From Candidatus Bathyarchaeia archaeon (lineage in GTDB: Archaea; Thermoproteota; Bathyarchaeia; Bathyarchaeales; Bathycorpusculaceae): a DNA stretch of 64,000 nt. The position numbers and the translations under genes are program-made. The notes under the pieces are model-generated. The model was not told the DNA's origin. It worked only from the letters and a program-made list of their open reading frames with translations, and ran no database searches. Below are positions 28,700-60,423 of the stretch, piece by piece; position 1 is the stretch's first letter, and each line of letters opens with the position of its first letter. The DNA is taken from NCBI GenBank assembly GCA_038883715.1, contig JAVZLS010000002.1, forward strand, positions 32,001 through 96,000, read 5' to 3'.

Positions 28700-29578
28700 T
28701 TAAAGCTTCAATGCAGCCCTAAGCCTAGCCGACCTAGCCCTAGGATTTTCCTCAACCTCCTCCTTAGATGGCCTAACAGGCTTTTTCGTCAAAATTTTAA
28801 CAGCACCTTCTTTGTCTTTCTGTCTCAGAAAATTTTTTACAATACGATCTTCCAAGGAATGAAAGGAAATAACCACAAGCCTACCCCCCTTATCCAATAT
28901 GTCAAGAGCTTGAGGCAAAGCCTTCGCCAAATTCTGCAACTCATTGTTCACAGCTATTCTCAAAGCCTGAAATGTCTTAGTGGCAAAATGAATCCGCCCC
29001 CTATGATACCAAGAAGGCGTCGCCTTCTCAACAGCCATAACCAAATCCACAGTAGTCCTCAACGGCCTAGACCGCACAATTTCTTCGGCTATCCTCCGCG
29101 CAAACCGCTCTTGCCCATAAACCCTTAAAATCTTCACAATATCCCTCAAACTCCAAAGATTCACTATGACTTCAGCAGTCAACGGATTTTCTGGGTTATA
29201 CCGCATATCAAGAGGCTCATTCCGGAGAAAAGAAAAACCTCGACCACTCCCCTCTAAATGCCAGCTTGACAAACCCAAATCAAACAAAACCCCAGAAACA
29301 CGCCTAAAGGCATACCTATCAACCATATCGCCCAAATTGGCAAAGTTACCGCAAACGAGGATTAGACGTTTTTCGTAATCGGTGCCTTCAACTCTCCTCT
29401 TAAGCCTCTCCAAAATTACAGGGTCAGCGTCCAGCCCCAAAACTCTACCGGAAGGCCCCGTCCGCTCCAAAACAGCCAAAGCATGACCACCCAAACCCAC
29501 AGTACAATCAACAAAATCCTCACCAGGCTTAGGATCAAGAAAAAGAATAACCTCGTCCTTCATAACTGGCAAGTGCAA
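28700..29578 (-). CDS. rsmH: 16S rRNA m4C1402 methyltransferase RsmH (MraW), bacterial type
   Basis: All RsmH motifs present: HLPVMKDEV, DCTVGLGGH, DLGLSS, RGFSF..PLDMR, YGQERFARRIA, ATKTFQALRIAVNNEL, ISFHSLEDRIVK, NPRARSARLR; start TTG 29578. Confidence 0.95.
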   Translation of the reverse strand: MHLPVMKDEVILFLDPKPGEDFVDCTVGLGGHALAVLERTGPSGRVLGLDADPVILERLKRRVEGTDYEKRLILVCGNFANLGDMVDRYAFRRVSGVLFDLGLSSWHLEGSGRGFSFLRNEPLDMRYNPENPLTAEVIVNLWSLRDIVKILRVYGQERFARRIAEEIVRSRPLRTTVDLVMAVEKATPSWYHRGRIHFATKTFQALRIAVNNELQNLAKALPQALDILDKGGRLVVISFHSLEDRIVKNFLRQKDKEGAVKILTKKPVRPSKEEVEENPRARSARLRAALKL

Positions 29579-29659
29579 CCCTAGACACCACAATCCCACA
29601 TAGATTTCGAAGCAACACGCATAAGTAAAAGCCGCATTTTATTTTAAAATTTACGAAAG

Positions 29660-29734
29660 TGCGGCCGCCGGGATTTGAACCCGGGTCGTCAGCGTGGCAG
29701 GCTGATGTCCTAGTCCAGGCTAGACTACGGCCGC
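29660..29734 (-). tRNA. tRNA-Gly (GCC), no intron, CCA not encoded
   Basis: GCGGCCG acceptor stem, D-loop AGCCTGGACTAGG, anticodon arm TCAGC-CTGCCAC-GCTGA, T-arm CCGGGTTCAAATCCCGG. Confidence 0.97.
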
Positions 29735-29913
29735 CTCGATAATTTCTGGTTATCCTCTTATCCACGTTTTCCTAAAAAGCGTTATGTTCTGTGTTGTTAA
29801 TAGCAAATGTCAATTTTGTGTTGGGTGGGAGACTGCAAAATTGATAGCCCCCTCTAGTTTTCTGTGTTGCTTTATAGTCAAGTTTTTATTGCTTGTTGGC
29901 TTTTGTGTTTTTG

Positions 29914-30801
29914 ATGTTTGGTAAGGAGTTTTTTGTTAGTCGTTATCGGTTGTTGGGTTGGGAGTTTAGGGATGTTGCGCCAAAACAGGCCATTAGGGTT
30001 AATGCCATGAATGTTAAGGGCGTCAATATTTTGGAGAGGCTTAGGGGTTTGGGGGTTGAGCTTGAGGAAATCCCGTTTCTTCGTGGTGGTTACTGGGTTA
30101 CGCGTTCAGATTTTTCTGTCGGCGCCACTGTGGAGTATCTTTTGGGCTATTATTCCATACAGGAGGCTGCGGCTCAAATCCCAGCAACATTGTTCACAGA
30201 TTTAAGGAGCAAGACTGTTTTAGATGCTTGTGCCGCTCCAGGCGGCAAGACTGTTCAGTTGGCGGATTTGATGGGGAACACTGGCGTCATTGTGGCTTTG
30301 GATGTTGATGGACGGAGGCTCAATGCCTTACAAAATCAGTTGGAGCGTTGCCGTGTGAAAAACACCATTGTTTATCGGCTGGATGCCCGAAAAACTTCAA
30401 AGCTGGGTTTGAAGTTTGATAGAATATTGCTTGATGTGCCATGTTCTGGCAACTTCGCCACCGACAAAGGCTGGTTTAGGCGGAGAACGCTGGCTGATGT
30501 TAAGAGAAACGCTAGGCTTCAAAGGGAGATGCTCGCTGAAGCCGCCAAGGTTCTAAAGGAAGACGGGGAAATAGTTTATGCCACATGCTCCCTAGAGCCG
30601 GAAGAAGACGAACTGAACATTGACTGGGCTGTGAAGAATCTAGGCCTTGAAACTGTAGAGATAGAATGCTACGGAGAGGAGGCGCCAACAGAAATCTTCG
30701 GCAAAAAACTAGATGATTCCGTTGGGAATTGTCGCCGCATATGGCCTGGTGAAACCCAAGGCTTTTTTTCATGCAAACTTAAAAAGCGCAAACATGGGTG
30801 A
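29914..30801 (+). CDS. RsmB/RsmF/Nop2 family RNA m5C methyltransferase (catalytic part)
   Basis: SIQEAAA, DACAAPGGKT, DVPCSG, YATCSLEPEE (both catalytic Cys); likely ATG at 29914. Confidence 0.92.
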   Translation: MFGKEFFVSRYRLLGWEFRDVAPKQAIRVNAMNVKGVNILERLRGLGVELEEIPFLRGGYWVTRSDFSVGATVEYLLGYYSIQEAAAQIPATLFTDLRSKTVLDACAAPGGKTVQLADLMGNTGVIVALDVDGRRLNALQNQLERCRVKNTIVYRLDARKTSKLGLKFDRILLDVPCSGNFATDKGWFRRRTLADVKRNARLQREMLAEAAKVLKEDGEIVYATCSLEPEEDELNIDWAVKNLGLETVEIECYGEEAPTEIFGKKLDDSVGNCRRIWPGETQGFFSCKLKKRKHG

Positions 30802-31300
30802 AATGGTCATGGCGAAGTGTATAGAGGATTTTGCCGAACTTTTCGGTGTAAAACTTAGCTTGGACAAAAGTCTGGTAGTTAAGAAGAAAGGTAAGTTTTT
30901 CTTGCTCAGCCCGAAATTGAAGAAATTGGCTGGGAAAGGCAGAGACTGGCTTTTTGCTGGAATATATCTTGGCAAAGTCGAGAATGGCAGGTTCTTTCCA
31001 AGTTTTCCCTTGCTTTTCATGATTGCAGGCCAAGCCCAAAACAAGGTGATTGTTGATGATAAGGCAGCTTGGCTTTTCGTCTGCAGCAGAGACATATTTA
31101 AGGAGGGAATATTGGAGGCTTACGGCTCAAGAGGTAAAGGCGCCTACACATTGGTTTTTAATCGCTATGGCGAGTGCCTCGGTTTTGGTAGAATAAAAAG
31201 GGACTTAGACAAGGCGGAAAGCGGCGTGGTCGTCAAAAACATTTTGGACATTGGAGATTTCTTAAGAAGGGAGCGAAGCACAAAAATTTCGGAAATCTAA
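30794..31300 (+). CDS. Nip7/PUA-like RNA-binding protein (resembles the RsmF C-terminal domains)
   Basis: GIYLGK...FFPSF, VDDKAAWLF..RDI, GECLGFG, KNILDIGDFLRRE; overlaps the methyltransferase stop. Confidence 0.75.
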   Translation: MGEMVMAKCIEDFAELFGVKLSLDKSLVVKKKGKFFLLSPKLKKLAGKGRDWLFAGIYLGKVENGRFFPSFPLLFMIAGQAQNKVIVDDKAAWLFVCSRDIFKEGILEAYGSRGKGAYTLVFNRYGECLGFGRIKRDLDKAESGVVVKNILDIGDFLRRERSTKISEI

Positions 31301-32595
31301 ATTCCGCCAGATTTTATTTTTTGGGCTAGTTCCTCAATTTTGACCTTGCTTTGTTCCTTTTTCTGCATGTCTCTTAGGACGACGGCTCCTTCGCTTAGTT
31401 CCCTTTCGCCAACGATTACTACATGGCTTATGCCCCTTCTGTCAGCGTCTTCCAAAGCCTTTGTAACCTTCCGCCTCATGACTTCCGTTTCAACGGTTAT
31501 TCCCTCATTTCTAAGCATTTCTGAAATCTTCAAGGCTTCATTGTTCAGTTTCTCATTAACAGGAATAACCATTACCCGTTTTTCCTCTTCGGCTGGTGGG
31601 CTGGTTTTCTGCTCTTGCATGGCGAGCATTATTCTGTCTATTCCATGGGCAACCCCAACGGCTGGTGTGGGTTCTCCACCAAAAAGCTCCACAAGTTTGT
31701 CATATCTTCCCCCGCCAGCCAGTGCAATGTCCAGCTCCGGCACATAAACCTCAAAAATCATCCCAGTATAGTATTCCAGTCCGCGGGCGAAACCAGAGTC
31801 CACGATTATGTCCAGCTCTTTCTCTGATTTTCCCACCAACCCGAGGATTTCTCTGAGATTTTTTGCTGCTTTTGATGCGTTCTCGTAATCTTTCACGAGT
31901 TTTTCCATTTCATCCAGAATGCTTGCAGTGTTGCCCCCTTTTAAGCCAATCATCCTTTGGAGCGTTTTTAGGCACCTATCCGTCACTCCTGCCTCTTTTA
32001 CCATGTTTAGGGCGTCTTCGTATTGTTTTTTGTCCATGAGTTGCATGACACGGTTTTGGGTTTCCTCTCCGAGTCCTTCGCGGCTTAATATGCCTCTTAA
32101 AACGCCGACGTGTCCAACTTTGAAGGTGTAGTTTTTTAATCCTACAGACCTCATTAAAGTGTTTGTTAGCAGTAGCACTTCGGCGTCGGCTTCTGGTTTT
32201 TCAGAGCCTATAAGCTCAAAGTTTGACTGCCAAAACTCTCTGAAGCGTCCCTTTTGTGGTTCATCATATCTGTAGAGACTTCCGATACAGAATAGCCTCA
32301 ATGGTTTGGGCTCGTTCCGCATTGTTGTCGCCACAAGCCTTGCAACAGAAGCCGTGAACTCCGGTCTTAAGGCAACTTTTCTTCCACCCAAATCTTCAAA
32401 GGCGTACATTCTTGCGCGGACTTCTTCGCCTGCCTTTGCCGCCACCAACTCATAGGACTCTACGACTGGTGTTATTATTTCCCTATATCCGTATAGTTTG
32501 GCTGTTTTTCTGGCTTTTTCCTCTATGAAGCGCATTATTTTTGCCTCTTCTGGTAGGAAGTCCCTCATTCCCCGGACTGTTTTGTAGGCGCTCAT
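31297..32595 (-). CDS. hisS: Histidine--tRNA ligase
   Basis: RGMRDFLP, LRPEFTA, RYDEPQKGRFREF, RGLEYYTG, GGGRYD. Confidence 0.98.
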   Translation of the reverse strand: MSAYKTVRGMRDFLPEEAKIMRFIEEKARKTAKLYGYREIITPVVESYELVAAKAGEEVRARMYAFEDLGGRKVALRPEFTASVARLVATTMRNEPKPLRLFCIGSLYRYDEPQKGRFREFWQSNFELIGSEKPEADAEVLLLTNTLMRSVGLKNYTFKVGHVGVLRGILSREGLGEETQNRVMQLMDKKQYEDALNMVKEAGVTDRCLKTLQRMIGLKGGNTASILDEMEKLVKDYENASKAAKNLREILGLVGKSEKELDIIVDSGFARGLEYYTGMIFEVYVPELDIALAGGGRYDKLVELFGGEPTPAVGVAHGIDRIMLAMQEQKTSPPAEEEKRVMVIPVNEKLNNEALKISEMLRNEGITVETEVMRRKVTKALEDADRRGISHVVIVGERELSEGAVVLRDMQKKEQSKVKIEELAQKIKSGGI

Positions 32596-32625
32596 AACAG
32601 TTCACGTTTTGGGCTTCTACCTCTT

Positions 32626-33186
32626 TTATGGTAGGGTTAATTGTGAGACGGAATAGTAAACTATTTCGCCTCTTCGGCTCATAACAGCCAAAATAAGCTC
32701 CTTTTTTAGGCTTTGACACTGCCTCATTATTTGGGTTAACTCCTCCATTGTTATTGGTTTTCCCTCTTGAAGGTTTAGGATTAGATATTTGGCTGTGTCC
32801 TTTCCATACTCGCCTCTTTCGTAGACTCTGAAGTCTACGCCCATGCCGAAGCCTTCGCGGACAACGTATCCGCGGCTTCTAAGGTCTCTGTAAACCATGT
32901 ATTTAGCCCAAGCGTTCTCGTCTGTTTTTTCAGCGGCTTGCAGAAGTTGTTGAAAGTCTATTTCCCAGCCCTTCTCGTCTTTAACTAAAATTAAGCCCTT
33001 ATCTAGGAGGTGGAGTGCCTCGTAAAAGTTTAGGAGAAGCCCGCCGTTTTCTTCTATGCCGTAGCCCTTTGCTTTAAGCTCCTCTGCTCTCTGTTTGTTG
33101 GCTATTTTCACTCCCTTTTCGGTTAATGTTCCCTCAATTTTTGTTTCTTGACGTAGCGGCTGCGGCGGCTCCTTACTTTTGCTCAT
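32626..33186 (-). CDS. endA: tRNA splicing endonuclease subunit (probably structural beta subunit)
   Basis: VYRDLRSRGYVVREGFGMGVDFRVY; the catalytic His and the GxKxG Lys are not evident. Confidence 0.85.
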   Translation of the reverse strand: MSKSKEPPQPLRQETKIEGTLTEKGVKIANKQRAEELKAKGYGIEENGGLLLNFYEALHLLDKGLILVKDEKGWEIDFQQLLQAAEKTDENAWAKYMVYRDLRSRGYVVREGFGMGVDFRVYERGEYGKDTAKYLILNLQEGKPITMEELTQIMRQCQSLKKELILAVMSRRGEIVYYSVSQLTLP

Positions 33187-33190
33187 AGGC

Positions 33191-34216
33191 TTAACCGTGC
33201 TGGCTTATTTTTGCCAAATCGTCCTTATATAGGATGCCTTCTTCGCAAATAATTGCGGTCACATATTTTATGGGCGTGATGTCAAAAGCTGGATTTAGGG
33301 CTGGAACGCCTTCTGGAGCTATCCGCTCAGAGCCTATACATGTCACCTCTTCTTGGCTTCGCTCTTCTATTGTTATATCTGCTGCTGTATGGGCTAAGTC
33401 AAAGGTGGATTTTGGAGCCGCCACGTAAAATGGTATGCCGTGTTCTTTAGCTAGGACTGCTATCTGGTAGGTTCCAATCTTGTTGATTACAGCATCCCGC
33501 ACTATACGGTCGGCTCCAACAATAACCTTGTCAACCATGCGTTTATACATGACGTATCCCACCATGGTGTCGCTTATCAAGGTGACTGGTATTCCGTCCC
33601 GTTTAAGCTCGTAGGCTGTTAGGCGGGCGCCCTGCAGCTTTGGTCTGGTTTCAGTGGCAATAACCCTAACCCTTTTACCTTGTTCCACAGCTGCCCTAAT
33701 AACGCCTAGGGCTGTTCCATAGTCCACTGTGGCTAGTGCCCCAGCGTTGCAATGTGTCAACAATGTGTCCCCATCATTGATTAGTGTGGCTCCATGCTTT
33801 CCCATTGAGCGGTTTGCCGCAACGTCCTCTTCAGCTATCCTATTTGCCTCTTCAACGACGAAGACGGCTAATTCCTCAGCGTTTCCTTGGAAAGCCCTAG
33901 CCTTGTTTAAAATCCTGTCAACCGCCCAGAAGAGGTTAACCCCTGTAGGTCTGGTCTTCCGTAATGTGTTTGCCGCCTCTTCTAATTCACGGATAAGCTC
34001 TTCTTTCCGCCGTGCCTTTGAATGGTAAGCTGTCAGCGCCAAGGCGTAGGCTGCGGCAACCCCTATTAGTGGAGCACCCCTAATCTTCATGGTTTTTATG
34101 GCTTCAGCCACTTCGCCGCTGCTTCGCATTTTGAGAGTGACGGTTTCTCTTGGAAGCCTTGTCTGGTCTATGGTTGTTACGACCCCGTTTTGCCATTTAA
34201 TCGTCCGCGTTTTCAT
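33191..34216 (-). CDS. mtnA: Methylthioribose-1-phosphate isomerase (eIF2B family)
   Basis: IRGAPLIG, RPTGVNL, THCNAGALAT, ETRP, GADR, NKIGT, NPAFDITP. Confidence 0.92.
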   Translation of the reverse strand: MKTRTIKWQNGVVTTIDQTRLPRETVTLKMRSSGEVAEAIKTMKIRGAPLIGVAAAYALALTAYHSKARRKEELIRELEEAANTLRKTRPTGVNLFWAVDRILNKARAFQGNAEELAVFVVEEANRIAEEDVAANRSMGKHGATLINDGDTLLTHCNAGALATVDYGTALGVIRAAVEQGKRVRVIATETRPKLQGARLTAYELKRDGIPVTLISDTMVGYVMYKRMVDKVIVGADRIVRDAVINKIGTYQIAVLAKEHGIPFYVAAPKSTFDLAHTAADITIEERSQEEVTCIGSERIAPEGVPALNPAFDITPIKYVTAIICEEGILYKDDLAKISQHG

Positions 34217-34339
34217 AGCGACAAGCTCAGCAAATCGTTTATGTAATGGAAAATATAAAAGCTGCTAGGAAAGTTAAGGATTGAAGCTAATTACCAAAAC
34301 TATTAAATCATGAGAACAGAATTTTATTTGTGGTCTAAA

Positions 34340-34759
34340 TTGGTTAAAGTCGTAACACGTTATTGGAGGATAGTTGCTGGGCATCCTAAACAAAAGGAAG
34401 ATAGAATTGAGCCGAAGTCGATCATTTTAGGAGACTGGCTTCGTAATGATTATGTATCAATTGGTTGGGAAGATCCTAAACAAATATCCCGAAGACGTTT
34501 TGACGAAATGAAGATTGGTGATAAAATCGTCGTAACAACGGACAAGCACATTTGGGCTATAGGTGAGATTGCAGGAAATTTATATGAAAAAGAAGAAGGA
34601 GAACTTTACCCTTATAGAAAGGATGTGATTTGGTACAAAATAACTAGGCTCAGTTACGATAATTTTCCAGCTTCTCTTAGAAACAAACTTAGAAATCCTC
34701 ATACCGTTATGGAATTAGATAAAAATGATTGGGAGACTATTCTAGCGTATCTTACGTAG
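34340..34759 (+). CDS. AT-rich hypothetical protein, PUA/EVE-like domain as found at the N-terminus of McrB/Mrr-type proteins
   Basis: YWRI..G, YVSIGW, MKIGDKIVV, AIGEIAG, YRKDVIW pattern; start uncertain (34310 or 34340). Confidence 0.6.
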   Translation: MVKVVTRYWRIVAGHPKQKEDRIEPKSIILGDWLRNDYVSIGWEDPKQISRRRFDEMKIGDKIVVTTDKHIWAIGEIAGNLYEKEEGELYPYRKDVIWYKITRLSYDNFPASLRNKLRNPHTVMELDKNDWETILAYLT

Positions 34760-34770
34760 TGAGATACATA

Positions 34771-35481
34771 ATGAAAAAGGAAGATCTAAAAGTTTTCGTT
34801 GAAGGTTTTGGGCATAGATACTCTGGAATTTTGGGCATAGACCTAAAAAGCCGAAGGGAAGAGGAGATTTTCAAGTGGTTTTTGACTTCCGTACTTTTCG
34901 GCGCGCCTATAACTGAAACTTCCGTCATAAAAACTTACAAGTGCTTCGAAAAGCGCGGCGTCTTAACTCCTCAAAAGATTTTGGAAACCGGTTGGGACGG
35001 CTTAGTGCAAATTCTCGACGAAGGCAGCTACACACGTTACGACTTCAAAACGGCTGACAAACTTCTCGAAGTAATGCGAAACTTAATAGAAAAGTATGAC
35101 GGAAAATTAACTACCATTTATGAAGAAGCCCATGACCACGCAGATTTGGAAGAGAAGCTTAAAAGTTTAGGAAAGGGCGTCGGCGACGTAACGGTGGGCA
35201 TATTCCTACGGGAGCTGCGCGACGTTTGGGAAAAAGCCAAACCAAAACCAACAAGCCTCGTTGTAATGGCAGCCAAAAACCTTGGAATAATTGATGAGAA
35301 ATCTCCAAAGGATGTTTTGCGGCAGCTTGAAGATTTTTGGGCTGAAAATGCTGTGACTGGCAAGTCCTTCACAAACTTTGAAACTGCATTGCTTCGTCTA
35401 GGCAAAAACTACTGTAGAAAGGATAGGTGCGCCGTTTGCCCCGTTAAGGCGGATTGTAAACGCCACGCTACGGGGGCTTAA
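34771..35481 (+). CDS. HhH-GPD superfamily-like protein with C-terminal Fe-S motif
   Basis: FKWFLTSVLFG, YTRYDFKTA, HhH LKSLGKGVGDVT, C-x4-C-x2-C-x5-C. Confidence 0.75.
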   Translation: MKKEDLKVFVEGFGHRYSGILGIDLKSRREEEIFKWFLTSVLFGAPITETSVIKTYKCFEKRGVLTPQKILETGWDGLVQILDEGSYTRYDFKTADKLLEVMRNLIEKYDGKLTTIYEEAHDHADLEEKLKSLGKGVGDVTVGIFLRELRDVWEKAKPKPTSLVVMAAKNLGIIDEKSPKDVLRQLEDFWAENAVTGKSFTNFETALLRLGKNYCRKDRCAVCPVKADCKRHATGA

Positions 35482-36202
35482 TGTAAGTTACAACCTCTAT
35501 TGGGCATTCTTCCGGAAGTTTTAGTCGCTTCCGCCACTCGTCGCCTATGGCTATGAGGGAGAAAATCCCTGAAATTTCAGCCTTCGCTTTACGCACAAGA
35601 TTGACGAGCGCTGCTTGTGTCTCACCAGTCTTAATCATGTCATCCACTATTAGGACGCTGTCCCGCTTTTTGATGGCTTCCTTTGGAACATAAAGCGTAA
35701 TTGTTACGCCGGAATCCCTAAGCACAAATGTTTCCTCAAGAAACTCTTTAACGCCAACCTCCTTGCTTCTCTTGGCTATAACAAGGTTTACGCCTAGAGC
35801 GTTTGCCACCATAGTTGCCAATGGGATTCCGTCAACCGCCGCAGTAAACACTTTTGTAACTCGTTTTCCAGCAAAATTTGCAAGAGCATGATTAGCCGCC
35901 TGCTGGAGAATGTTAAAATCTCCAATAATCTCGGTATTATCAAAATAACCATCCTCGTTAAACTTTATTCTGTTCCGGAGCTCGTTTTCCAAACCAACAA
36001 ATTTTGATAAGACTTTCCAGAGCTGTTTTGCTCTGGCAGTGTTTGGCAAAACGTGTCCTTTGGCGTATCTGCTTAGAACTGTTACTGGCAAGCCTGTTTT
36101 TGCTGACAACTCGCGGTATGTGATGTTCCGCTTGTATTTGGCTGTTCGAAGAAGTTCAATAGTCATTAAACGCAGTTTCAACTCTTCTGCGTGTGTGCTC
36201 AT
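35468..36202 (-). CDS. HTH-fused purine phosphoribosyltransferase-like regulator
   Basis: N-terminal HTH (TYRELSAKTGLPVTVLSRY) plus PRPP loop LIVDDMIKTGET. Confidence 0.85.
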   Translation of the reverse strand: MSTHAEELKLRLMTIELLRTAKYKRNITYRELSAKTGLPVTVLSRYAKGHVLPNTARAKQLWKVLSKFVGLENELRNRIKFNEDGYFDNTEIIGDFNILQQAANHALANFAGKRVTKVFTAAVDGIPLATMVANALGVNLVIAKRSKEVGVKEFLEETFVLRDSGVTITLYVPKEAIKKRDSVLIVDDMIKTGETQAALVNLVRKAKAEISGIFSLIAIGDEWRKRLKLPEECPIEVVTYIKPP

Positions 36203-36314
36203 CAGCCTCCCCCATACACAAGGACCAGTTAAATTCTGAAGCGTTTACATCTTATTATTACCTTCCCAATTTATAATTTCCGCTCGAAAACCGAACAGCA
36301 CGCAAACAAACGTT

Positions 36315-37262
36315 TTAGGGCGCCTTAGCTAAAATCACTTCGAAGGAGTACTCAAAACCATCCCGGTAAACCGTCAAGCGGACTTTTTCGCCAGCCCTTT
36401 TCTTATGAATTTCGCCTAAGAGCTTCTCTATCCGTGTTACGGGGACGTCATCCAAAGCCAATATTATGTCGCCAGCCGCTATGCCAGCCTCATGCGCTGG
36501 GCTTCCCTCAACAACCCTAGTGACTAAAACGCCTTCATCTAATGGTATTCCATAATAGCGGGAAATCTCCTTTGTGAGGCTTAATCCCATTATCCCAAGC
36601 CATGGTCGTGTGTGCACCCCTTTAGATATGATTTCTGCTGCGCACTTTTTGGCTGAGTTTATGGGGATGGCGAACCCGATTCCATGGGCATAGGGAATAA
36701 TAGCGGTGCTTATGGCAACAACCTTGCCATTAACATCCACTAGGGGTCCGCCGCTGTTTCCCGGGTTTATGGCTGCATCTGTCTGGACAAGATTTTCCAG
36801 AAGCTCATTTTTGGATTCTATGGTGCGGTTTAAGGCGCTTACAACGCCGGAAGTTATTGTTGGTCCACCAGCCAAGCCGAAGGGGTTACCGATGGCGTAG
36901 ACGCGCTGTCCAATCCTCAACTTATCAGAGTCTCCAAGCTCAGCATAGGGCAAGCCTTTCCTGTCAACTTTGACTACGGCTATGTCGTGGATTGTGCATG
37001 TTCCAAGCAAGCGTCCGTTTAAAACTTCGCCGTTCCAGAGGGTGACGGCTATGCGTTCAGCGCCTTGAACAACATGGTTATTCGTTAATACGTGGCCTTC
37101 GCTGTCTATTATTGTTCCGGAACCCATGCCCTTGACTGGGAAGACTTGGTAGAATATGTCTTGAATCAGCCTAATCGTGCTGATGTTGACAACGCTCCTG
37201 CTGACTTTTTCTAGAACATCCAAAACCTTAGACTCGTCATTAAATGCCAATCTAACCGCCAC
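36315..37262 (-). CDS. HtrA/DegP-like serine protease with PDZ domain
   Basis: TNNHVV, DIAVV, QTDAAINPGNSGG, C-terminal PDZ; no signal peptide. Confidence 0.93.
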   Translation of the reverse strand: MAVRLAFNDESKVLDVLEKVSRSVVNISTIRLIQDIFYQVFPVKGMGSGTIIDSEGHVLTNNHVVQGAERIAVTLWNGEVLNGRLLGTCTIHDIAVVKVDRKGLPYAELGDSDKLRIGQRVYAIGNPFGLAGGPTITSGVVSALNRTIESKNELLENLVQTDAAINPGNSGGPLVDVNGKVVAISTAIIPYAHGIGFAIPINSAKKCAAEIISKGVHTRPWLGIMGLSLTKEISRYYGIPLDEGVLVTRVVEGSPAHEAGIAAGDIILALDDVPVTRIEKLLGEIHKKRAGEKVRLTVYRDGFEYSFEVILAKAP

Positions 37263-37301
37263 TGTAAAATCTCTTTAAAGGCTTTAAACCCTTTTCTCTC
37301 T

Positions 37302-38495: not shown

Positions 38496-38526
38496 TATGT
38501 TTTCCTGCTAAGAGTAGCCCTTTAAT

Positions 38527-51438: not shown

Positions 51439-51445
51439 CTTGAAA

Positions 51446-52348: not shown

Positions 52349-52434
52349 ACCTTCTTTTGGCTATGATAACGCTCAATAATTTTCACTTTTAGGATTGAAA
52401 ATGTATAAATGTGATTTGGAGAAGAGCATACGTT

Positions 52435-53337
52435 ATGTATGTTAAAACAAGAAAATTAGCTCTTATAGAGGGCATAACTGCTGGCATCCTCTTTGGGACC
52501 TCAGCTATCTTCATAAGGTATCTCCAAAATTTTGATGCCTTTTCCATAGCCTTCTGGCGATTAATCATCGCTTGCATCGTGCTGGCTGTAGGGCTCTTTG
52601 TGCCTAGAAAAGCTTTCAGCTTTAGCCTTGTTAGGAAAAATTTGGGAAATTTTTTCGTTCTCAGTCTTTTTCTAGGTTTGCACTTCATATTTTTCATATC
52701 CGCTGTTAAGGATACAACGATTTTAAATGCAACAGTTTTGGTTAACACAACCCCAATTTTTTCCCTAATTTTCTCAAGCCTATTCTATAAAGCTAAACCT
52801 TCAAGCCTCGCTGTTTTTGGCATAGCCTTATCTTTTGTTGGCGCGTGCATTATTGCCTCCGCTGAAACCCAAATGGCTGGTGCTTCACTAAATAGCTTCT
52901 CTCCAAGACTAAAGGGGGATTTAGAAGCCACATTAGCTGCTATACTTGAAGCCTGCTTCCTTACTTATGGAAGAAAGATAAGGGGGTGCATGGACATAAT
53001 CTCCATTATGCTTCCCATCTATTTTCTAACAGCGCTAATCGTAGGCGTGTTAGGATTGGCTGTCGCAAATAAAACTTTAGAGTCGCCGACAACGATAGAA
53101 AGTCTCCTTCCACTGGTTGGCTTAGGTGTCTTGCCAACGGCGGTAGCCCGCACTTTAGCTTTTTCTTCTCTCTCGGATCTAAAATCTTTTGAAACTGCAA
53201 CCATGGCTTTGCTGGAACCATTAGGGGCAACATCCCTAGGCATAGTTCTATTTGGCGAGTGGCCTCTCCCAATTTTTGCGGTGGGAACGGCATTGATTTT
53301 GGCTGGAATAGTCTTCGTTTCCAGAGGGGAAGGCTGA
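52435..53337 (+). CDS. DMT/EamA family transporter
   Basis: About 10 TM in two repeats; LLEPLGA...LFGE. Confidence 0.88.
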   Translation: MYVKTRKLALIEGITAGILFGTSAIFIRYLQNFDAFSIAFWRLIIACIVLAVGLFVPRKAFSFSLVRKNLGNFFVLSLFLGLHFIFFISAVKDTTILNATVLVNTTPIFSLIFSSLFYKAKPSSLAVFGIALSFVGACIIASAETQMAGASLNSFSPRLKGDLEATLAAILEACFLTYGRKIRGCMDIISIMLPIYFLTALIVGVLGLAVANKTLESPTTIESLLPLVGLGVLPTAVARTLAFSSLSDLKSFETATMALLEPLGATSLGIVLFGEWPLPIFAVGTALILAGIVFVSRGEG

Positions 53338-53400
53338 AAGCTTTTACGAAACAGATAAAAGGCTTCACAATATATTGTGCAGAAAGCGGGTTGAAACCCA

Positions 53401-53796
53401 ATGGCGGCAAACGACAAGATATTGAAGGCTTTGGAATCCGCAACCAGCTACTTGGAAAAATCGGCTTCCGCGCTGAGCAGCGGAGACGAAAACTCCTTTA
53501 CAAAGCATTTTTGGCATGTTGCCGCAGAACTGGAATACGCCCTTTTCCTGTTCTCCCTAATTTTCCAAGAAGAGAATGTTGACAAGTCAAAGTGGAAGCC
53601 CAACCCAGACATGAAAAAGGATAATATCAATGGCGTTTTAGCCGAAGTTCGCAGCTTACTGGAAAACGCTAAAAAGTTTTTAACCAGCGGCAAGCTTTTA
53701 GACGCCTATAAGGGCATTTATGTGGCAAGACACTGTGTTTTCGCCGTTGAGGAGAATCTAGCCAAGAAAAAGCGTGAAAGCTCGAAAAATAAATAG
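53401..53796 (+). CDS. Hypothetical helical protein
   Basis: 131-aa frame, amphipathic helices; no motif recognised. Confidence 0.65.
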   Translation: MAANDKILKALESATSYLEKSASALSSGDENSFTKHFWHVAAELEYALFLFSLIFQEENVDKSKWKPNPDMKKDNINGVLAEVRSLLENAKKFLTSGKLLDAYKGIYVARHCVFAVEENLAKKKRESSKNK

Positions 53797-53800
53797 GCTA

Positions 53801-54076
53801 TTATTCTGGCAGCTTTCGCCCCTTAATCTTTAAGGCGCCTTCTTCCTCGCTTATAACCCTATAATATTCCTTAAGCTCGCTTTTATGTAGAAACTTTTTC
53901 AGAAGCACCCTCACGTACTGTTTTGGAAGGCTTTTCTCTTCGCTCTTCACTACAATATCATTTGTTAGGGTTTTAACTTCGGCGTTTGTCTTTTCTTTTA
54001 AGAATTCTGCCAGCTCTTTTACGATATCTCCGCCTTCAGCCTTAAGCTCAGACACATCAATTTTTATCTCAATCAT
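53801..54076 (-). CDS. rpl22e: Ribosomal protein eL22 (L22e) homologue
   Basis: KIDVS...LAEFLKEK...PKQYVRVLLKKFLHKSELKEYYRVIS resembles the eL22 signature SKRYLKYLTKKYLKKxxLRDWLRVVA (recognised from memory of the family). Confidence 0.78.
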   Translation of the reverse strand: MIEIKIDVSELKAEGGDIVKELAEFLKEKTNAEVKTLTNDIVVKSEEKSLPKQYVRVLLKKFLHKSELKEYYRVISEEEGALKIKGRKLPE

Positions 54077-54100
54077 TCCATCCCCCGCCTTCATTCTGGT

Positions 54101-54760
54101 TTACTTTCTAACCATTATAACCCTAACTTGGTCACATGCATCCTCGCATGCGTCTGCAATCATTTCTAAGGCTTCAAAAAGTTGACCAACTAAAACGGCG
54201 ACTCCAGCCTTTTGGAGGTTCTCTTTTCCCAATAATGTTCTTGCCGTCTCGTGTAAGTCGTCAACTTTCTCCTCCTCCCTTTCCACGGCGTCTGCCGCTT
54301 GAAGGGCTTCTTCCGGCTTTGTTATTATCTTGTTTATGCACCTTTGGAGCATTATGGCACATTCCCTCACGCCTTTAGCCATCTCCACAAACTCTTTTTT
54401 GATAGAGGCTGGCACATGCTCCATGGGCGTGGCCATTAAAACCCTTGTTGATTCTCTGCTCCAGTCTGCGACCATGTCCACCCTCTTGACAAGGTGCATT
54501 ATGTCTTCTCTGGCTGTTGGCGGTAACTCACCTTTCGACACTTCATCCATAACTTTTCTGCGTAGGCTGTCCGCCTCTCTTTCGCCGCTGGCAATTCTCT
54601 CTACACAGTTTCTTAGGGTTTTTGGGTCGCCGTCCACTGCCGCCTTAACGGCTTTTTCCAAGTCCTCAACTATGCTTGTTGTTATGGCGAGGTGTTGCTG
54701 TATCATTGTTAGGGCTTTCGTCTCCCTGCGCTTTTCAAACCATTTTATTAGTTCACTCAA
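54101..54760 (-). CDS. DUF47/PhoU-like phosphate transport regulator
   Basis: EREAD..RR, PTARED, D.VAD, EEKVDD, E.IADACED. Confidence 0.9.
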   Translation of the reverse strand: MSELIKWFEKRRETKALTMIQQHLAITTSIVEDLEKAVKAAVDGDPKTLRNCVERIASGEREADSLRRKVMDEVSKGELPPTAREDIMHLVKRVDMVADWSRESTRVLMATPMEHVPASIKKEFVEMAKGVRECAIMLQRCINKIITKPEEALQAADAVEREEEKVDDLHETARTLLGKENLQKAGVAVLVGQLFEALEMIADACEDACDQVRVIMVRK

Positions 54761-55856
54761 CAGCCAACTCCTCCCTTAAGCCTAACTCCGGATAAGCGAA
54801 CAAGTGGGCGCTTTCCGGTTGGAAACTTAAGGTAACCTTTTCCCCTATATTAAGCCATTCACAAGCCATGGAAGGCGTAACGACAACTACTAAATCTTGA
54901 TTTTCAAGCCTAACCTCGTACCTTACATTTGTTCCTTCAAAGGCAAACCTTTCAACAACACCCAACATGGCATTTTCATCCGCGTCCTTCCCCCGCTTAA
55001 TGGTAAAAGTTTCTGGTCTGACGGCTAAAACCACTCTTTCACCCTTACTCATGCCTTTATTGACCGCTTGAACTTTTATGCCTCCTCGAAGCTCAATAAC
55101 AGCCATCCGCCCCCTCGTTTCCGCTATGAAGCCTTCCAAAAAGTTTGAACCTCCAATGAAATTTGCCACAAAAATGCTCTGGGGGTTCATGTAAAGCTCT
55201 CGAGGCGTCCCCACTTGTAGGACCTTTCCCTTCTTCATAACGGCTATTCTGTCTGATATTGCCATAGCCTCCGACTGGTCATGGGTTACATGTATGGCGG
55301 TTAACTCCAAATCCTTAGTCATGCGTCTAATCTCATATCTAAGCTCATTTCTAACCTTAGCGTCCAAATGCCCTAAAGGCTCGTCTAAAAGTAGCAGTTT
55401 TGCACCAGCAGCAAGTGCCCTTGCAACGGCCACCCTCTGCATCATTCCGCCACTTAACTCGCTTGGAAAAGCATCTAACCGCTCATGGAGTCTAACCATT
55501 TCCAAAACTTCATGTCCTATCCTTTCGGCTTTCTGCATGTCAAAACCCTTAACCCTTGGACCATAAGTGACGTTTTCCCAAGCGTTCATGTGGGGAAACA
55601 GCGCAAAAGTCTGAAAGACAAAGCCCACATCGCGGTCTTCAGGCGGGACATCATTCACAAGCCTATCGCCAATGTATATTTCGCCTTCGTCAGGCTCTAT
55701 CAATCCAGCAATAAGCCTAAGTAAAGTGGTCTTTCCACAACCGCTCGGTCCAAGAATTGAGAAATACTCCTTATCCTTTATGTGGAGGCTGACGTTGTCG
55801 ACAGCCACAATTTTTCCAAACTTTTTCGTGACATTAACCAAGCGCACGTCTGGCAT
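54753..55856 (-). CDS. ABC transporter ATP-binding protein (PotA/FbpC-like, TOBE domain)
   Basis: GPSGCGKTT, LSGGMMQR, LLLLDEP, HVTHDQ. Confidence 0.95.
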   Translation of the reverse strand: MPDVRLVNVTKKFGKIVAVDNVSLHIKDKEYFSILGPSGCGKTTLLRLIAGLIEPDEGEIYIGDRLVNDVPPEDRDVGFVFQTFALFPHMNAWENVTYGPRVKGFDMQKAERIGHEVLEMVRLHERLDAFPSELSGGMMQRVAVARALAAGAKLLLLDEPLGHLDAKVRNELRYEIRRMTKDLELTAIHVTHDQSEAMAISDRIAVMKKGKVLQVGTPRELYMNPQSIFVANFIGGSNFLEGFIAETRGRMAVIELRGGIKVQAVNKGMSKGERVVLAVRPETFTIKRGKDADENAMLGVVERFAFEGTNVRYEVRLENQDLVVVVTPSMACEWLNIGEKVTLSFQPESAHLFAYPELGLREELAVE

Positions 55857-55858
55857 GC

Positions 55859-57550
55859 CTAGTACCTTCCCTTACCCTTAACGATAAGCCTTAAGGCTAA
55901 TAGGATTATGAAGGAGATTAATATTAAGAAACCGCAACCCAAACCAATCTCCAAAAATTTATCATAACTTTTAGTTTTCATCCATTCCCTAACCCATTCT
56001 ACAAGAAATACGGGGGCGGTCTGAAGCTGTCGGGTGACGGCCAGTGTGGCACCAGTTTCACTTACGCTTCTTGTGAAGACCATTATAGCACCAGAAAGCA
56101 TTGAATATTTAGTCAAGGGGAATATTATTGTTCTGAACACGCTTAAGGGTTTAGCCCCCAAGGTTCTTGACGCTTCCTCCAGCTCTATGCTTATCCTCTC
56201 GATGGCTGCTGACATAGATCTTACAAAATATGGGTAGGTTATGGCCAAATGTGCGAAAATGAGAAGCAAAATGTCCGGTATGAAAGCCAAAGTCCCCCAG
56301 AAAAATCCAAGAGAAACGCCTAAAGCCGCTGATGGGATAATTATTGGGATGTCGATAAGCACGTTTAAGGCTGATGAAGTTTTTCCAAGACGTTTTCGTG
56401 CGACAATTATTGCCATTGGCAAGCCTATAAGGACATTTAAGACTGTTACGACGGCCCCAAGGGAATATGAAAGAACGAGGCTTTGCCAATACCTTCCCCA
56501 AGAATTAACCCCTGAAAGAGCGGTACATATTAAACCTGCTGACGCAGCTTTGAAAGCCGGTAGAGCTGCAAAAAGTGATGGAATTAGCACGATGATAAAG
56601 AAGATAAAGAGCGTGATGCCATTTCTTATTAGAACCGCAGAGGAATAGCTTATTTTCCTCTCAACTGTTGGCCAAGCCCTTTTGAATGGCAGTTTCAGTT
56701 TACCTCCAAGAACGCGTACTGCAGCAAAAATTAGGCATGAAATAACAATAAGAATAAGGCTCACAAAAACTGTTGCACCGACATAAACATCTTTCGTGTT
56801 CTGGATAAATATAGGGCCGTTTTCAAATAGTATTTGACCAGTTTCAATGGACGTGGCAACCATCATGGTTGCCCCTGTTTCCGAAATGGACCTTGCAAAA
56901 GCCAAAATAAAAGCCGCAATCAAGGAAGGGTTTATAATTCCGAAAGTAACCGTTCTGGCAGTTGTGAAGGGTGGCGCGCCTAAGGTTCTCGATGCTTGTT
57001 CATATTCGATCTTATAATCCAGCAAAGCGCCAACAATCACCCTCACAACGACCGGATACGAGAATGTGAAATGCAGTAATGCAACAAGAAGCCAGCCTGG
57101 CGAAACAAGAGAGCCGCCAAAAAGTGCTGAGATTCCTTCGGGCTTGTACCAGAACAAAAGAAGCGAATAGCCGAGCACGGCTGTCGGCACGATAAAAGGG
57201 ACGTCTGCAAGCGTGTCGAGAACGTTTATCCATTTGGATTTGCTTCGGGCTATGAGCCAAGCCATTGGAATGCCGGCAGCTACATCCAAAATCGAAACCA
57301 AAACAGCCATGACAAAGGAATTTTTCACAGCGTCTAATGCCCGATTCATAAGTTGGCTGTCGCCAAAAATTTCCTGCATCGAGCCCCACTTAATTACTAT
57401 ACCTAAAATTGGCGGAATCAAAATTAGGGCGAAAAAGAGTATTACCGCGACTAAATAAACTCCATATTTGACAGTTGGCTTTGAGGAAAGCCTATCAAGC
57501 TTCTCCGTGAATTTTTTGGGCAAACTTACCAGCCTAAATCCGCTCGGCAA
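55859..57550 (-). CDS. ABC transporter permease, fused double TM domain (Fe3+/thiamine/oxyanion type)
   Basis: Two EAA loops (YEQASRTLGA; LEEASRTLGA). Confidence 0.92.
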   Translation of the reverse strand: MPSGFRLVSLPKKFTEKLDRLSSKPTVKYGVYLVAVILFFALILIPPILGIVIKWGSMQEIFGDSQLMNRALDAVKNSFVMAVLVSILDVAAGIPMAWLIARSKSKWINVLDTLADVPFIVPTAVLGYSLLLFWYKPEGISALFGGSLVSPGWLLVALLHFTFSYPVVVRVIVGALLDYKIEYEQASRTLGAPPFTTARTVTFGIINPSLIAAFILAFARSISETGATMMVATSIETGQILFENGPIFIQNTKDVYVGATVFVSLILIVISCLIFAAVRVLGGKLKLPFKRAWPTVERKISYSSAVLIRNGITLFIFFIIVLIPSLFAALPAFKAASAGLICTALSGVNSWGRYWQSLVLSYSLGAVVTVLNVLIGLPMAIIVARKRLGKTSSALNVLIDIPIIIPSAALGVSLGFFWGTLAFIPDILLLIFAHLAITYPYFVRSMSAAIERISIELEEASRTLGAKPLSVFRTIIFPLTKYSMLSGAIMVFTRSVSETGATLAVTRQLQTAPVFLVEWVREWMKTKSYDKFLEIGLGCGFLILISFIILLALRLIVKGKGRY

Positions 57551-57687
57551 ACTAACATGCTTCTTTTTTCATTTGCAAAATTTGCTGATAAGCTTTCCGT
57601 ATAAGGGCAAATGTTTCATCTTGTTCAATTATGAAAATTATGAAAATAAGGAAAAAATTATAAAAATTGGGAGATGTTGCCCTTAAT

Positions 57688-58368
57688 TTAACCATTTTTG
57701 GATTTGCGTTTAGTGTAGATTATGGCTGTTGATACTATGGCTATTGCCACGGCTGTTGAGATGCATATAGACATGATTTCTATTGGCAGGTTTGGCGGTG
57801 ATAGCGGGTTTGATGATGACGTTCCTTGCCAAATGTTTGTGCTGGTTGCTTTAAAAGTAGCTGACATGGAGCCTTGAGTTAAAGTTACTTCCACAATGAT
57901 TCCTGTTTCCTTGTCCCAGCAGTAGCTGAACTGCATGTCTCCTTGTGTTAGGCTTGCGTAGACAACGGTTCTGCTTGCTCCGGCATAAGTTCCTGTTTTT
58001 TCACCAGCAATGGTTACGCTGCTTCCTTCTACCGCTGGAATGATATCTCCGGTCCTTAAGTTTGCTGGTATAAGTGCTTGGAAAGTCGCGTTTCCAGTGC
58101 CGCTTGCAACGTCCCACGTCATGATTTCAGTCTGTTCTGCTCCATTGCTGAAGTGTGTTGTCACGCGTAACGTTGCAACTGTTCCCGCTGCTGATAGGCA
58201 TTCCACTTTAACCCATTGGATAAACTCGCTTGGCAAATTGTTGCCCGAAACATATTCGCATTTTATCCAGTCATCTGCTTTAACGCCTAACTGCGCGGTA
58301 GCGTAAACTGAACCTAAACAGAGTAGAAAAAGGATGATGATTGTTCCCAGAGCAACTGCCTTACTCAT
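57688..58368 (-). CDS. Exported protein with C-terminal membrane anchor
   Basis: Signal peptide, beta-rich body with WDKETG, C-terminal TM + basic tail. Confidence 0.78.
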   Translation of the reverse strand: MSKAVALGTIIILFLLCLGSVYATAQLGVKADDWIKCEYVSGNNLPSEFIQWVKVECLSAAGTVATLRVTTHFSNGAEQTEIMTWDVASGTGNATFQALIPANLRTGDIIPAVEGSSVTIAGEKTGTYAGASRTVVYASLTQGDMQFSYCWDKETGIIVEVTLTQGSMSATFKATSTNIWQGTSSSNPLSPPNLPIEIMSICISTAVAIAIVSTAIIYTKRKSKNG

Positions 58369-58384
58369 AGCGTTGACCCTCCCA

Positions 58385-60199
58385 TCATCCTCGTTTCACG
58401 ATCATTGCGGCTATCACAGATGCAACCGCTACGATGGCAACCGACAATATCAGCCACCAGTAGCTTAATATGCCCGTAAAGTCAAAGCCGCCACCACCGG
58501 CTGCGCCACCGCCGCCGCTTAAATGCGCTGCTAACTGGTGGTAGCTGTGGTGGTATTGCACGTAGATTTGAGCGTATCCGCCAGCCTGACTTATCTGAAA
58601 GTCTATGGGCTGATCGTCTAATGTCACTTTTACGGCTGAAAGCGAACTAATCATTTCAACTGGTATGGTGATGTTGGCTATTCCCGTTGTTCCGTCTGGA
58701 CCGCCAACGTTTACGCTTAAAGTCATGCTTGTAGAGTTGAAGACCACGCCAAGCACAGAAGAGTTTGTTGAAACGTACATTCTCTTGTTTCGCCACTCTA
58801 GCTGCATGCGAATCCAACCTTCCGGCAAAACGGAGATGAAAGCGTTCAAACCAGTCGCTGCAGCCTCATGACCATCATCTATGCCGTCACCATCCGTATC
58901 CCTTCTTATGGGGTCTGTCCGGAAAACTTTGATTTCAACACCGTCGCTGAGTCCATCCCCATCAGTATCTGGATTTAATAGATTTAACGGGTAAGTTCCA
59001 ACACCAGCCCGCTTTATGTTAAACTCATGCTCTTCCAAGTTGGTCAACCCGTCATTGTCATAGTCTTTGTAGATGTCTGTTGGATCCAGTGGGTTAAAGT
59101 ATCCACAGAAAATTTCTTCGCGGTCAGATAGGCCGTCTCCGTCGCTGTCCGGGTTGGAGGATATTGGAAGGCTTAAGTCTATAAGATATGGAACGTCTCT
59201 TATTGTTTTAATGAAGGCGGCTATGGAATCGTTGAGGGGCGACCATGTCCAACATTTGGCGCCATAAAAAATCGTGTGTTTGTTGCTTCCATCAACATTT
59301 ATAGCTGTGATGTTACTACTATCCCACCAAATATTATATGGATGGTAATCATATCTTCCTCCATAATTAACTTCCGTGTATGTTAGCATTGTTCCATTCG
59401 GCGCCCAATTTAAATGCATTGCAATGTTGTTTTCTGAGATATCAGCAATCTTGGTTAGGTTGGTTCCATCGGAGTTAATTATCCAAACGCCAGTGTACGT
59501 TGTGAAGGCTATCTTGTCGTTTGATGGAGAAAACCTAACGCTAAACATCTGGTTATCTGTCCCCTCAAGTTCCAGAACCAGTGATCTCTCGCTTGTTTCG
59601 AGGTTGACTTTCCAAATGCGACTGAAATGGGTGTAGGGATATGTAGAATGGTTCTCTGCAAATTCTGTGTAAAGTAATGTTGTGCCATCCCTTGATAAGT
59701 CAAAGAATGTGGGTACGCATGAGGAGCAACTATTAACGTAGGTTATGAAAGTTGGATTGGTACCATCCAAGTTCTTTGAATATATTGCGGAAGAAGGAGC
59801 AAATACATAGCTGGCGTTGATGTAGAATATTTTTGAATCGTCTGGCGAAATAACAAAATTATCAAACACGCCTTGACCGCTATAGCCCCACAGATTACAA
59901 GAGTCACTAATCGGCGACCAAGTGCTTGCGTTAATTACCACAAAACGGTCAGAACCAGCTATTAATAGTATCTCTCCAGAAGGGGACCATGCGATGCTTG
60001 TTGCGATCATGCCTCCAGAATTCCACATGATATGTCCATCTTCTGTTTGCCATACTTGAGGCGCAGGCCAATAAATGATCCTTGGATTGGCATTAACGGT
60101 AGATTCAGCTGCGTTTGAAAGAGGGATTCTGCAAAGTCCAAACATTGTTGAAGCAAGGATAAAGGTTATTGCGGCGATAGACAATGATCTTTTTAACAT
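58385..60199 (-). CDS. Cell-surface protein: TolB-like beta-propeller + Ca-binding DxDGDG repeats + C-terminal anchor
   Basis: Signal peptide; WSP/FSP/WAP repeats; DSDGDGLSD, DYDNDGLTN, DTDGDGLSD, DTDGDGIDD; Gly linker, TM, KRG. Confidence 0.82.
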   Translation of the reverse strand: MLKRSLSIAAITFILASTMFGLCRIPLSNAAESTVNANPRIIYWPAPQVWQTEDGHIMWNSGGMIATSIAWSPSGEILLIAGSDRFVVINASTWSPISDSCNLWGYSGQGVFDNFVISPDDSKIFYINASYVFAPSSAIYSKNLDGTNPTFITYVNSCSSCVPTFFDLSRDGTTLLYTEFAENHSTYPYTHFSRIWKVNLETSERSLVLELEGTDNQMFSVRFSPSNDKIAFTTYTGVWIINSDGTNLTKIADISENNIAMHLNWAPNGTMLTYTEVNYGGRYDYHPYNIWWDSSNITAINVDGSNKHTIFYGAKCWTWSPLNDSIAAFIKTIRDVPYLIDLSLPISSNPDSDGDGLSDREEIFCGYFNPLDPTDIYKDYDNDGLTNLEEHEFNIKRAGVGTYPLNLLNPDTDGDGLSDGVEIKVFRTDPIRRDTDGDGIDDGHEAAATGLNAFISVLPEGWIRMQLEWRNKRMYVSTNSSVLGVVFNSTSMTLSVNVGGPDGTTGIANITIPVEMISSLSAVKVTLDDQPIDFQISQAGGYAQIYVQYHHSYHQLAAHLSGGGGAAGGGGFDFTGILSYWWLILSVAIVAVASVIAAMIVKRG

Positions 60200-60356
60200 G
60201 ATGTTTCCCTCATACTTTTAGTGTTTATTACGAAAGCATACTCTAAAAGACTTACGCACAACAAATTCTAAAAATTCATCAAAATTTCAACTAAACTTCA
60301 TGCAACATTCTGAACATATTGCAAAGATCCGACGTCACACAACAAATTTTTATGTG

Positions 60357-60423
60357 TCAGTTCGCCCGTCGAGTCATATCACAGCTTATGCCAAAGCTCT
60401 ATTGACTCTCCAGCTCATCATCC
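60357..60423 (-). ncRNA. Box C/D sRNA predicted to guide 2'-O-methylation of 16S C1402 (E. coli numbering)
   Basis: GG-AUGAUGA(C)-GCUGGAG-AGUCAAUAGA-GCUU-UGGCAU-AAGC-UGUGAUAUGACU-CGACGGGCG-AA-CUGA(D). Intergenic, with perfect C and D boxes, an internal K-turn hairpin, and a guide complementary to CGCCCGUCG. Confidence 0.85.

Follow-up and report, generated by a model that had tools for sequence, protein, structure and literature searches.

An archaeal box C/D guide RNA and a bacterial-type RsmH predicted to act on the same 16S cytidine, C1402, in hot-spring Bathyarchaeia

Introduction

Can a single nucleotide of an archaeal ribosome receive one methyl group from a native RNA-guided enzyme and another from an enzyme of bacterial origin? 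The question is raised by a 64,000-nucleotide stretch of DNA of a Candidatus Bathyarchaeia archaeon (assembly GCA_038883715.1, contig JAVZLS010000002.1, positions 32,001 to 96,000; G000:C2:32001-96000 in our numbering), called the window below, which carries on its minus strand a homologue of the 16S rRNA methyltransferase RsmH and a box C/D small RNA whose guide faces C1402 of 16S rRNA. C1402 contacts the P-site codon. According to Table 4 of Coureux et al. (PMC7005279), its state is a domain signature, with N4,2'-O-dimethylcytidine (m4Cm) in bacteria, 2'-O-methylcytidine (Cm) in archaea and eukaryotes and N4-methylcytidine (m4C) in mitochondria; the same table makes Cm1376 of P. abyssi 16S rRNA the equivalent of m4Cm1402 and classes Cm as archaeal/eukaryotic and m4Cm as bacterial. 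Table 2 of a 2024 review (PMC11542601) has the same equivalence under another numbering. In the passages of Kimura and Suzuki (PMC2831307) on these enzymes, E. coli RsmH acts on the assembled 30S, neither rsmH nor rsmI was found in archaea as of 2009, and eukaryotes use a C/D small nucleolar RNA at the site.

A first-pass annotation, made from the letters of the window, had proposed that this archaeon may combine its native guide machinery, standing in for RsmI, with an imported RsmH. We confirm what that annotation observed and support its interpretation in part. At the level of sequence there is good ground for the convergence on C1402 of an ancestral guide and an imported RsmH, and m4Cm1402 is a reasonable prediction for the product. 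We give a probability of about 0.55 to the reading that two independent systems converge on this nucleotide and that the RsmH-bearing lineages would make m4Cm1402 without RsmI.

The host genome comprises 1.33 Mb in 41 contigs, with an estimated completeness of 90.3%, and the sequencing runs that contain the locus carry the label hot springs metagenome. It was compared with 41 relatives, and wider sets consisted of 301 genomes of the class (for RsmH), 401 genomes of the phylum and 4 archaeal control genomes.

A box C/D guide facing C1402 of the host 16S rRNA

The small RNA lies on the minus strand in a 260-nucleotide (nt) gap between two minus-strand open reading frames (ORFs). Its parts, from the 5' end, are as follows.

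60357..60423, minus strand: box C/D small RNA, whole element (sequence, conservation in relatives, covariance model)
60415..60421, minus strand: box C, AUGAUGA, invariant in 24 of 24 aligned homologues
60402..60414, minus strand: D' spacer of 13 nt (fold, pair counts, 23S match)
60398..60401, minus strand: D'-like box UAGA, which is CAGA, CUGA or UGGA in relatives (alignment)
60384..60397, minus strand: stem-loop of 14 nt between D' and C'; its GC/GC base is invariant and its inner pairs compensate
60376..60382, minus strand: C'-like box GUGAUAU, deviating from RUGAUGA; UGAU is invariant and the remainder variable
60361..60375, minus strand: D spacer of 15 nt, of which positions 3-11 from box D (60363-60371) pair with 16S C1400-G1408
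60357..60360, minus strand: box D, CUGA, invariant in 24 of 24

The host 16S gene is found on contig C1 (G000:C1:52909-54403), and its target region reads ...ACACCGCCCGTCGCTCC..., also given as ...ACACCGCCCGTCGCTCCACC.... Nine Watson-Crick pairs in a row join positions 3-11 upstream of box D to CGCCCGUCG, C1400-G1408, and the fifth base upstream, G60365, stands opposite C1402 in a G-C Watson-Crick pair. The +5 nucleotide is the first C of the CCC triplet and, when aligned with E. coli 16S, falls on feature position 1401 of a 1541-nt copy, which we take, via the landmark A1408, to be C1402 in standard numbering. The D guide thus agrees with the archaeal target rule as worded in PMC4644070, at least nine consecutive Watson-Crick pairs including +5. 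The site is also the best D-guide match in the host 16S and the same-genus 23S taken together. A search of the recovered genome found no 23S of its own, and one from the same genus was used as a substitute. In complete-looking relatives the 16S and 23S genes are unlinked: G004 has them on opposite strands with about 18 kb between them, and in G021 the distance exceeds 800 kb. The box C/D RNA announced by the first-pass annotation is present, and so is a match to the host 16S; of its universal C1400-C1407 target, those bases are indeed paired, but the ninth pair uses G1408.

We then looked at the target in other genomes. It is identical, G at 1408 included, in the 16S 3' regions of 24 relatives in which the motif occurs, and three further loci are without the motif. 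Against E. coli, the 16S target is identical to the bacterial sequence over CCGCCCGUC. A comparison of guide position 11 with 16S position 1408 for covariation was uninformative, G being present in all 24 16S ends. The 16S genes of the order, as represented by these 24 relatives, thus have G and not A at 1408, the eukaryote-like state of this decoding-site base. Longer or better spacer targets were sought in the own genome, and none of at least 10 nt was found except the antisense strand of the RNA itself and a few unannotated 10-11-mers. When the small RNA and the 16S segment were folded as two strands, the internal hairpin was retained along with 8 guide pairs, but box C was also drawn into pairing with the target; this fold was set aside, since such pairing is unrealistic for a protein-bound box.

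The small RNA is conserved in 26 of the 41 relatives. Box C, box D and the D-guide core GACGGGC are invariant in the 24 aligned copies (two exact duplicates among the 26 were dropped). A covariance model built from the aligned copies was run on a sample of 151 genomes from across the class and detected the family in 38 of them, with E values up to 0.01. In distant members of the class the first spacer consists of unrelated sequences, and CGACGGGCG or CGAUGGGCG persists in the D guide, always in an unchanged register relative to box D. Every lineage holds +5 on C1402, though guide positions 1-3 and 8 vary. The nine-pair match taken by itself is barely more than chance would give and is only suggestive; it is this conservation that carries the case for a guide. 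A strict regular-expression scan of the genome for further C/D RNAs returned 2 loose matches only and is not informative on their total number.

The own genome also encodes the proteins of a guide ribonucleoprotein (RNP), as had been supposed: contig C31 carries fibrillarin (327.8 bits) and Nop5 (263.6 bits) side by side, and there are two genes of the L7Ae family. Reads over the small RNA were inspected as well. One raw RNA run, about 12% of it read, gave a single partly fitting read at the small RNA. In two runs labelled metatranscriptomic, which are probably DNA, the depth summed over contigs climbs from about 40 to 500-770 precisely at 60351-60431, and contigs from other contexts join at 60354/60355 and 60424/60427. 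We read this spike as a conserved block common to several relatives in the sample, not as expression.

An intact RsmH gene confined to a subclade

The second element has the following place in the window.

28700..29599, minus strand: rsmH, 16S rRNA (cytosine1402-N4)-methyltransferase homologue, an intact ORF (PF01795, TIGR00006)

The ORF encodes 299 amino acids from a GTG at 29599. The intact gene reported by the first-pass annotation, ending at 29578, is the 292-amino-acid form that starts there, which is the version of the public gene callers (P0001, 100% identical). The protein scores 313.6 bits against Pfam PF01795 and 292.8 bits against the NCBIfam equivalog model TIGR00006 (cut-off 154.3), where it covers profile positions 6-307 of 310. 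Its residues 9-298 are collinear with the solved MraW of T. maritima (1m6y, 270.5 bits) and T. thermophilus (1wg8), and the structure-search alignments to E. coli RsmH and to mitochondrial METTL15 (about 174-177 bits for the latter) are weaker. The loop VGLGGHA aligns with VGEGGHS of the solved MraW structures; we take this glycine-rich loop to be the one that binds S-adenosylmethionine. Against 6 same-genus unsaturated orthologues, the ratio of nonsynonymous to synonymous substitution rates (dN/dS) was 0.078-0.222 (6 more distant pairs were saturated). RsmH is, on these sequence comparisons, kept under purifying selection. All 17 RsmH matches in the relatives are open frames without stops, the gene is retained in at least 7 genera, and 5 contigs, of which the longest has 241 kb, carry an identical protein.

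To define the distribution of RsmH, the genome sets described above were searched. It is present in 16 of the 41 relatives, namely in 12 of the 13 other genomes of the genus and in three further genera of the same family. Across the class, it scores above cut-off in 9 of 301 genomes, and two further matches are fragments at contig ends; all of them belong to family f1. The phylum set gave 3 of 401 genomes and the archaeal control genomes 0 of 4. A scan of 185,579 species genomes yielded 477 relatives of the protein, and the best 80 of these went into a tree. These best 80 of 477 comprise 27 archaeal-labelled and 53 bacterial-labelled loci, the latter bearing Patescibacteria or Candidate Phyla Radiation (CPR) names or plain 'bacterium', at 47-63% identity. 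In a quick maximum-likelihood tree of the same 80, 25 archaeal rows including the query form one clade with a long stem and a support of 100 in the Shimodaira-Hasegawa-like approximate likelihood-ratio test (SH-aLRT). Its sister is a Nealsonbacteria/Patescibacteria pair, with a support of only 80. Two rows labelled Bathyarchaeota (L174 and L177) were placed elsewhere among the CPR rows, outside the 25-row clade. One same-genus genome, G006, has two RsmH copies (C16:5844-6710 and C1:98182-99057). This double copy and the placement of L174 and L177 could be due to mixed bins, a second transfer or mis-binned CPR contigs.

The import of a bacterial-type RsmH, as had been supposed, is borne out by its confinement to a subclade and by nearest relatives that, among the best 80 of 477, are Patescibacteria. 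We propose from these sequences that RsmH was acquired once from a Patescibacteria-like bacterium by the ancestor of a hot-spring subclade of Bathyarchaeia.

The guide is older than RsmH and independent of it

Across the 41 relatives, the two elements are distributed as follows.

Both guide and RsmH: 14 genomes
Guide only: 12 genomes
RsmH only: 2 genomes
Neither: 13 genomes

The two genomes with RsmH only have a completeness of 84% and 79%, and searching them with the covariance model likewise gave no guide. A survey of co-occurrence had been suggested with the original proposal, and it gives a divided answer: 14 genomes do have both, but 12 have the guide only and 2 RsmH only. Since 12 of the 41 relatives carry the guide alone, and since the guide is spread across the class, the guide predates RsmH. 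It is older, far more widespread and independent of RsmH, and the two are linked only by the target base expected of both, not genetically.

RsmI was sought with TIGR00096. No match was found in the own genome (90.3% complete), and none of the 41 relatives has RsmI above cut-off; 3 weak matches, none above 24.2 bits, belong to other methylases with that fold. The lack of RsmI on which the first-pass annotation built its proposal is supported by these searches. Its idea that the guide stands in for RsmI in an assembled pathway does not hold, the guide being ancestral and carried without RsmH by those 12 relatives.

A helix between the two spacers

AGUCA, in the 3' half of the D' spacer, can base-pair with UGACU, with which the D spacer opens (60403-60408 with 60371-60376, minus strand). 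In the fold, this spacer-spacer helix and the stem-loop form one long hairpin enclosing the C'/D' boxes. The helix is 93.8% paired in the 24 homologues, but there is too little variation within the family for strong covariation. In the stem-loop, by pair counting, pair 36-45 is UA in 10, CG in 4 and UG in 4 sequences. In several distant lineages altered sequences still pair, and L133, L139 and L144 show the best self-pairing among 16 cross-pairings. The summed self-pairing energy was beaten by permuted partners in 89 of 20,000 trials, a figure that overstates the support, as the rows are related. No internal helix was found in lineages L027, L138, L145 and L147.

Two other readings of the D' spacer rank below this helix, which is the best-supported one. 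First, the spacer matches helix 69 of the 23S of relatives (L044 and L043, from G004 and G021) with 8 Watson-Crick pairs and 1 G-U, which is below the rule of PMC4644070. Shuffled sequences equal this match in 2846 of 20,000 cases, and members with an altered internal helix lose it. The +5 base would presumably fall on 23S C1920 in E. coli numbering, a position that we take to be ribose-methylated by TlyA in mycobacteria. If the match were true, a single RNA would mark an intersubunit bridge on both its sides. Second, as a split guide, UGGAG of the first spacer could pair with 16S CUCCA, giving 14 contiguous 16S bases in the own genome. When the rows were read against the 16S ends, most other lineages retained only 3 of the 5 UGGAG pairs.

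A helix between spacers is an unusual architecture for an archaeal C/D RNA. Canonical archaeal double-guide C/D small RNAs (Rfam sR, snoPyro_CD) have in common with this one box C, box D, an internal C'/D' pair (here off consensus), the +5 rule and, by prediction, dependence on L7Ae, Nop5 and fibrillarin. In contrast, the spacers here measure 13 and 15 nt, a covarying stem-loop replaces the short loop as the connector from D' to C', the two spacers are joined by a helix at the beginning of the D spacer, and there is no Rfam family at threshold. On this structural model, the guide RNA may be a structurally new single-guide form, in which the D' spacer is locked in the internal helix, leaving a kink-turn arm. 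On either side of this arm, in the own genome, lie the two segments that could jointly pair with the 14 contiguous 16S bases mentioned above.

Neighbouring genes

Other features of the window lie beside the two elements. Upstream of rsmH by about 60 nt, on the same strand, is a tRNA gene.

29659..29734, minus strand: tRNA-Gly (GCC) (ARAGORN; Rfam tRNA 64.7 bits)

The further neighbours of rsmH are a NOL1/NOP2/Sun methylase, a nucleoside deoxyribosyltransferase-like gene and a DUF401 membrane protein. Bacterial rsmH usually heads the cell-division (dcw) cluster, a context that is typical but not defining; among the neighbouring genes inspected at this rsmH locus it was not found. The NOL1/NOP2/Sun gene (29893-30801, plus strand), encoding a 5-methylcytidine (m5C) RNA methylase, is divergent beside rsmH; it scores 225.8 bits against TIGR00446 and has a weak RsmF N-domain match. 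The two genes are adjacent in G000 and G012, and in tandem with a 26-nt gap in another genus (G018:C13:2584-4369); in G003, G004, G008 and G013 some 60 kb of a single contig separate them. The varying spacing suggests an inversion in G000 and G012. Perhaps the two genes are functionally paired on neighbouring 16S cytidines.

Directly downstream of the small RNA, at 58385-60199 on the minus strand, a 604-amino-acid predicted surface protein is encoded. Its N-terminus carries a hydrophobic segment and its C-terminus a membrane anchor, and motifs rich in aspartate and glycine (D-x-D-G-D-G) recur along it.

Discussion

The mechanism we propose has two stages. The ancestral box C/D guide RNA would assemble with L7Ae, Nop5 and fibrillarin, and its D guide would pair with single-stranded nascent 16S rRNA at C1400-G1408, directing a 2'-O-methyl group onto C1402 to give Cm, as in Pyrococcus and eukaryotes. 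Later, once the small subunit is assembled, RsmH would act as its bacterial and mitochondrial counterparts do and add an N4-methyl group, here onto Cm1402 to give m4Cm. We infer the expression of the small RNA, both methyl transfers and their order.

Several points weigh against this. The guide and RsmH do not co-vary, 12 genomes having the guide alone and 2 incomplete ones RsmH alone. The action of RsmH from a CPR-type donor on an archaeal 30S is a presumed step, drawn by analogy. The RsmH tree has no non-CPR outgroup, so a CPR donor rests on similarity ranking and topology. The spacers depart from the archaeal norm of 12 nt, and the C' and D' boxes are off consensus. No Rfam family recognizes the small RNA at the gathering threshold, the best being sR2 with 16.7 bits against 42; the sub-threshold matches are weak, all to archaeal C/D families and all on the minus strand. 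Finally, among 20,000 shuffled composition-matched 12-mers, 1359 (6.8%) reach at least nine pairs covering +5.

This last figure, together with the off-consensus boxes and an architecture made atypical by the helix between the two spacers, would fit a different explanation, in which base methylation alone is real: RsmH makes m4C1402 as METTL15 does, and the small RNA is a folding chaperone of the 1400 region or has another target. Chaperone-type C/D RNAs are discussed in part of PMC4644070. We consider this explanation unlikely. The +5 pair is a G-C Watson-Crick pair, its register on C1402 is kept in every lineage despite the changes at guide positions 1-3 and 8, and Cm at the site is documented, in the tables cited above, in another archaeon and in eukaryotes (PMC7005279, PMC11542601).

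Conversely, ribose methylation alone could be real, with the guide making Cm1402 and RsmH acting on another substrate or being little active on the archaeal subunit. The donor of RsmH is very distant, the gene stands without its bacterial neighbourhood, and its presence is uncorrelated with any change in guide or target. We hold this to be a little less probable still, as the characterised family members in the structure search (bacterial RsmH and METTL15) are all named for C1402, the target is identical to the bacterial one over the stretch aligned with E. coli, and the gene is under purifying selection in at least 7 genera.

An artefact of binning or assembly, with rsmH on a stray CPR contig or brought in by a chimeric join, would suit a donor group common in the same habitats, the two 'Bathyarchaeota'-labelled sequences outside the main clade and an rsmH position relative to its neighbour that differs between close relatives. 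Mis-assembly, which the first-pass annotation had named as something that could undo its proposal, or contamination is nevertheless very unlikely, given the gene's place inside a 137.6-kb contig between archaeal-type genes, its recurrence in 12 of the genus's 13 other genomes and beyond the genus, the open frames in relatives, the signs of purifying selection, the separate long-stemmed clade of 25 archaeal sequences (best 80 of 477) and the identical protein on 5 contigs.

The convergence of guide and RsmH on C1402 can be set beside three known systems. The bacterial RsmH/RsmI pair (E. coli; PMC2831307) has the same nucleotide and the same expected product, m4Cm1402, and the RsmH found here is a full-length member of the family; in contrast, the host here is archaeal, no RsmI was found, and the ribose methyl would be supplied by fibrillarin in an RNA-guided RNP. 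The archaeal/eukaryotic Cm (P. abyssi Cm1376, yeast Cm1639, human Cm1703) has in common with the case proposed here RNA-guided 2'-O-methylation of the same P-site cytidine, but those organisms have Cm only, whereas an N4-methylase is also encoded here. Mitochondrial METTL15 (m4C839/840 of 12S rRNA) is an RsmH-family enzyme outside bacteria acting on the same nucleotide; mitochondria, however, make m4C without a ribose methyl, and METTL15 was inherited with the organelle and not by recent transfer. The ribose methyl at archaeal C1402 is therefore already known, and the guide described here is a further member; only the added N4-methyl would be new. In the part of PMC4644070 that covers guide predictions in seven surveyed archaea, few fall on helix 44 and C1402 is not mentioned. 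We found no paper containing both 'Bathyarchae' and 'RsmH', and public annotations already name these genes RsmH. Since archaeal Cm1402 is known and the RsmH genes were already annotated, the finding is less surprising than the first-pass annotation held.

Taken as a whole, and tentatively, the sequences point to a hot-spring subclade of Bathyarchaeia that would have turned the P-site Cm1402 into m4Cm by means of a CPR-derived RsmH, on a site predicted to receive its ribose methyl through an ancestral guide, which may be a new single-guide form. If true, this would be the first m4Cm in an archaeon, and the first natural case of one nucleotide finished by an RNA-guided enzyme and a stand-alone enzyme of another domain. 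It would also add a case of gene flow from CPR to archaea that affects the ribosome itself. The close relatives with and without RsmH, having the same guide and the same target, provide a natural experiment. Should the mixed route be true, the chemistry of the decoding centre would be changeable by the transfer of a single gene across domains.

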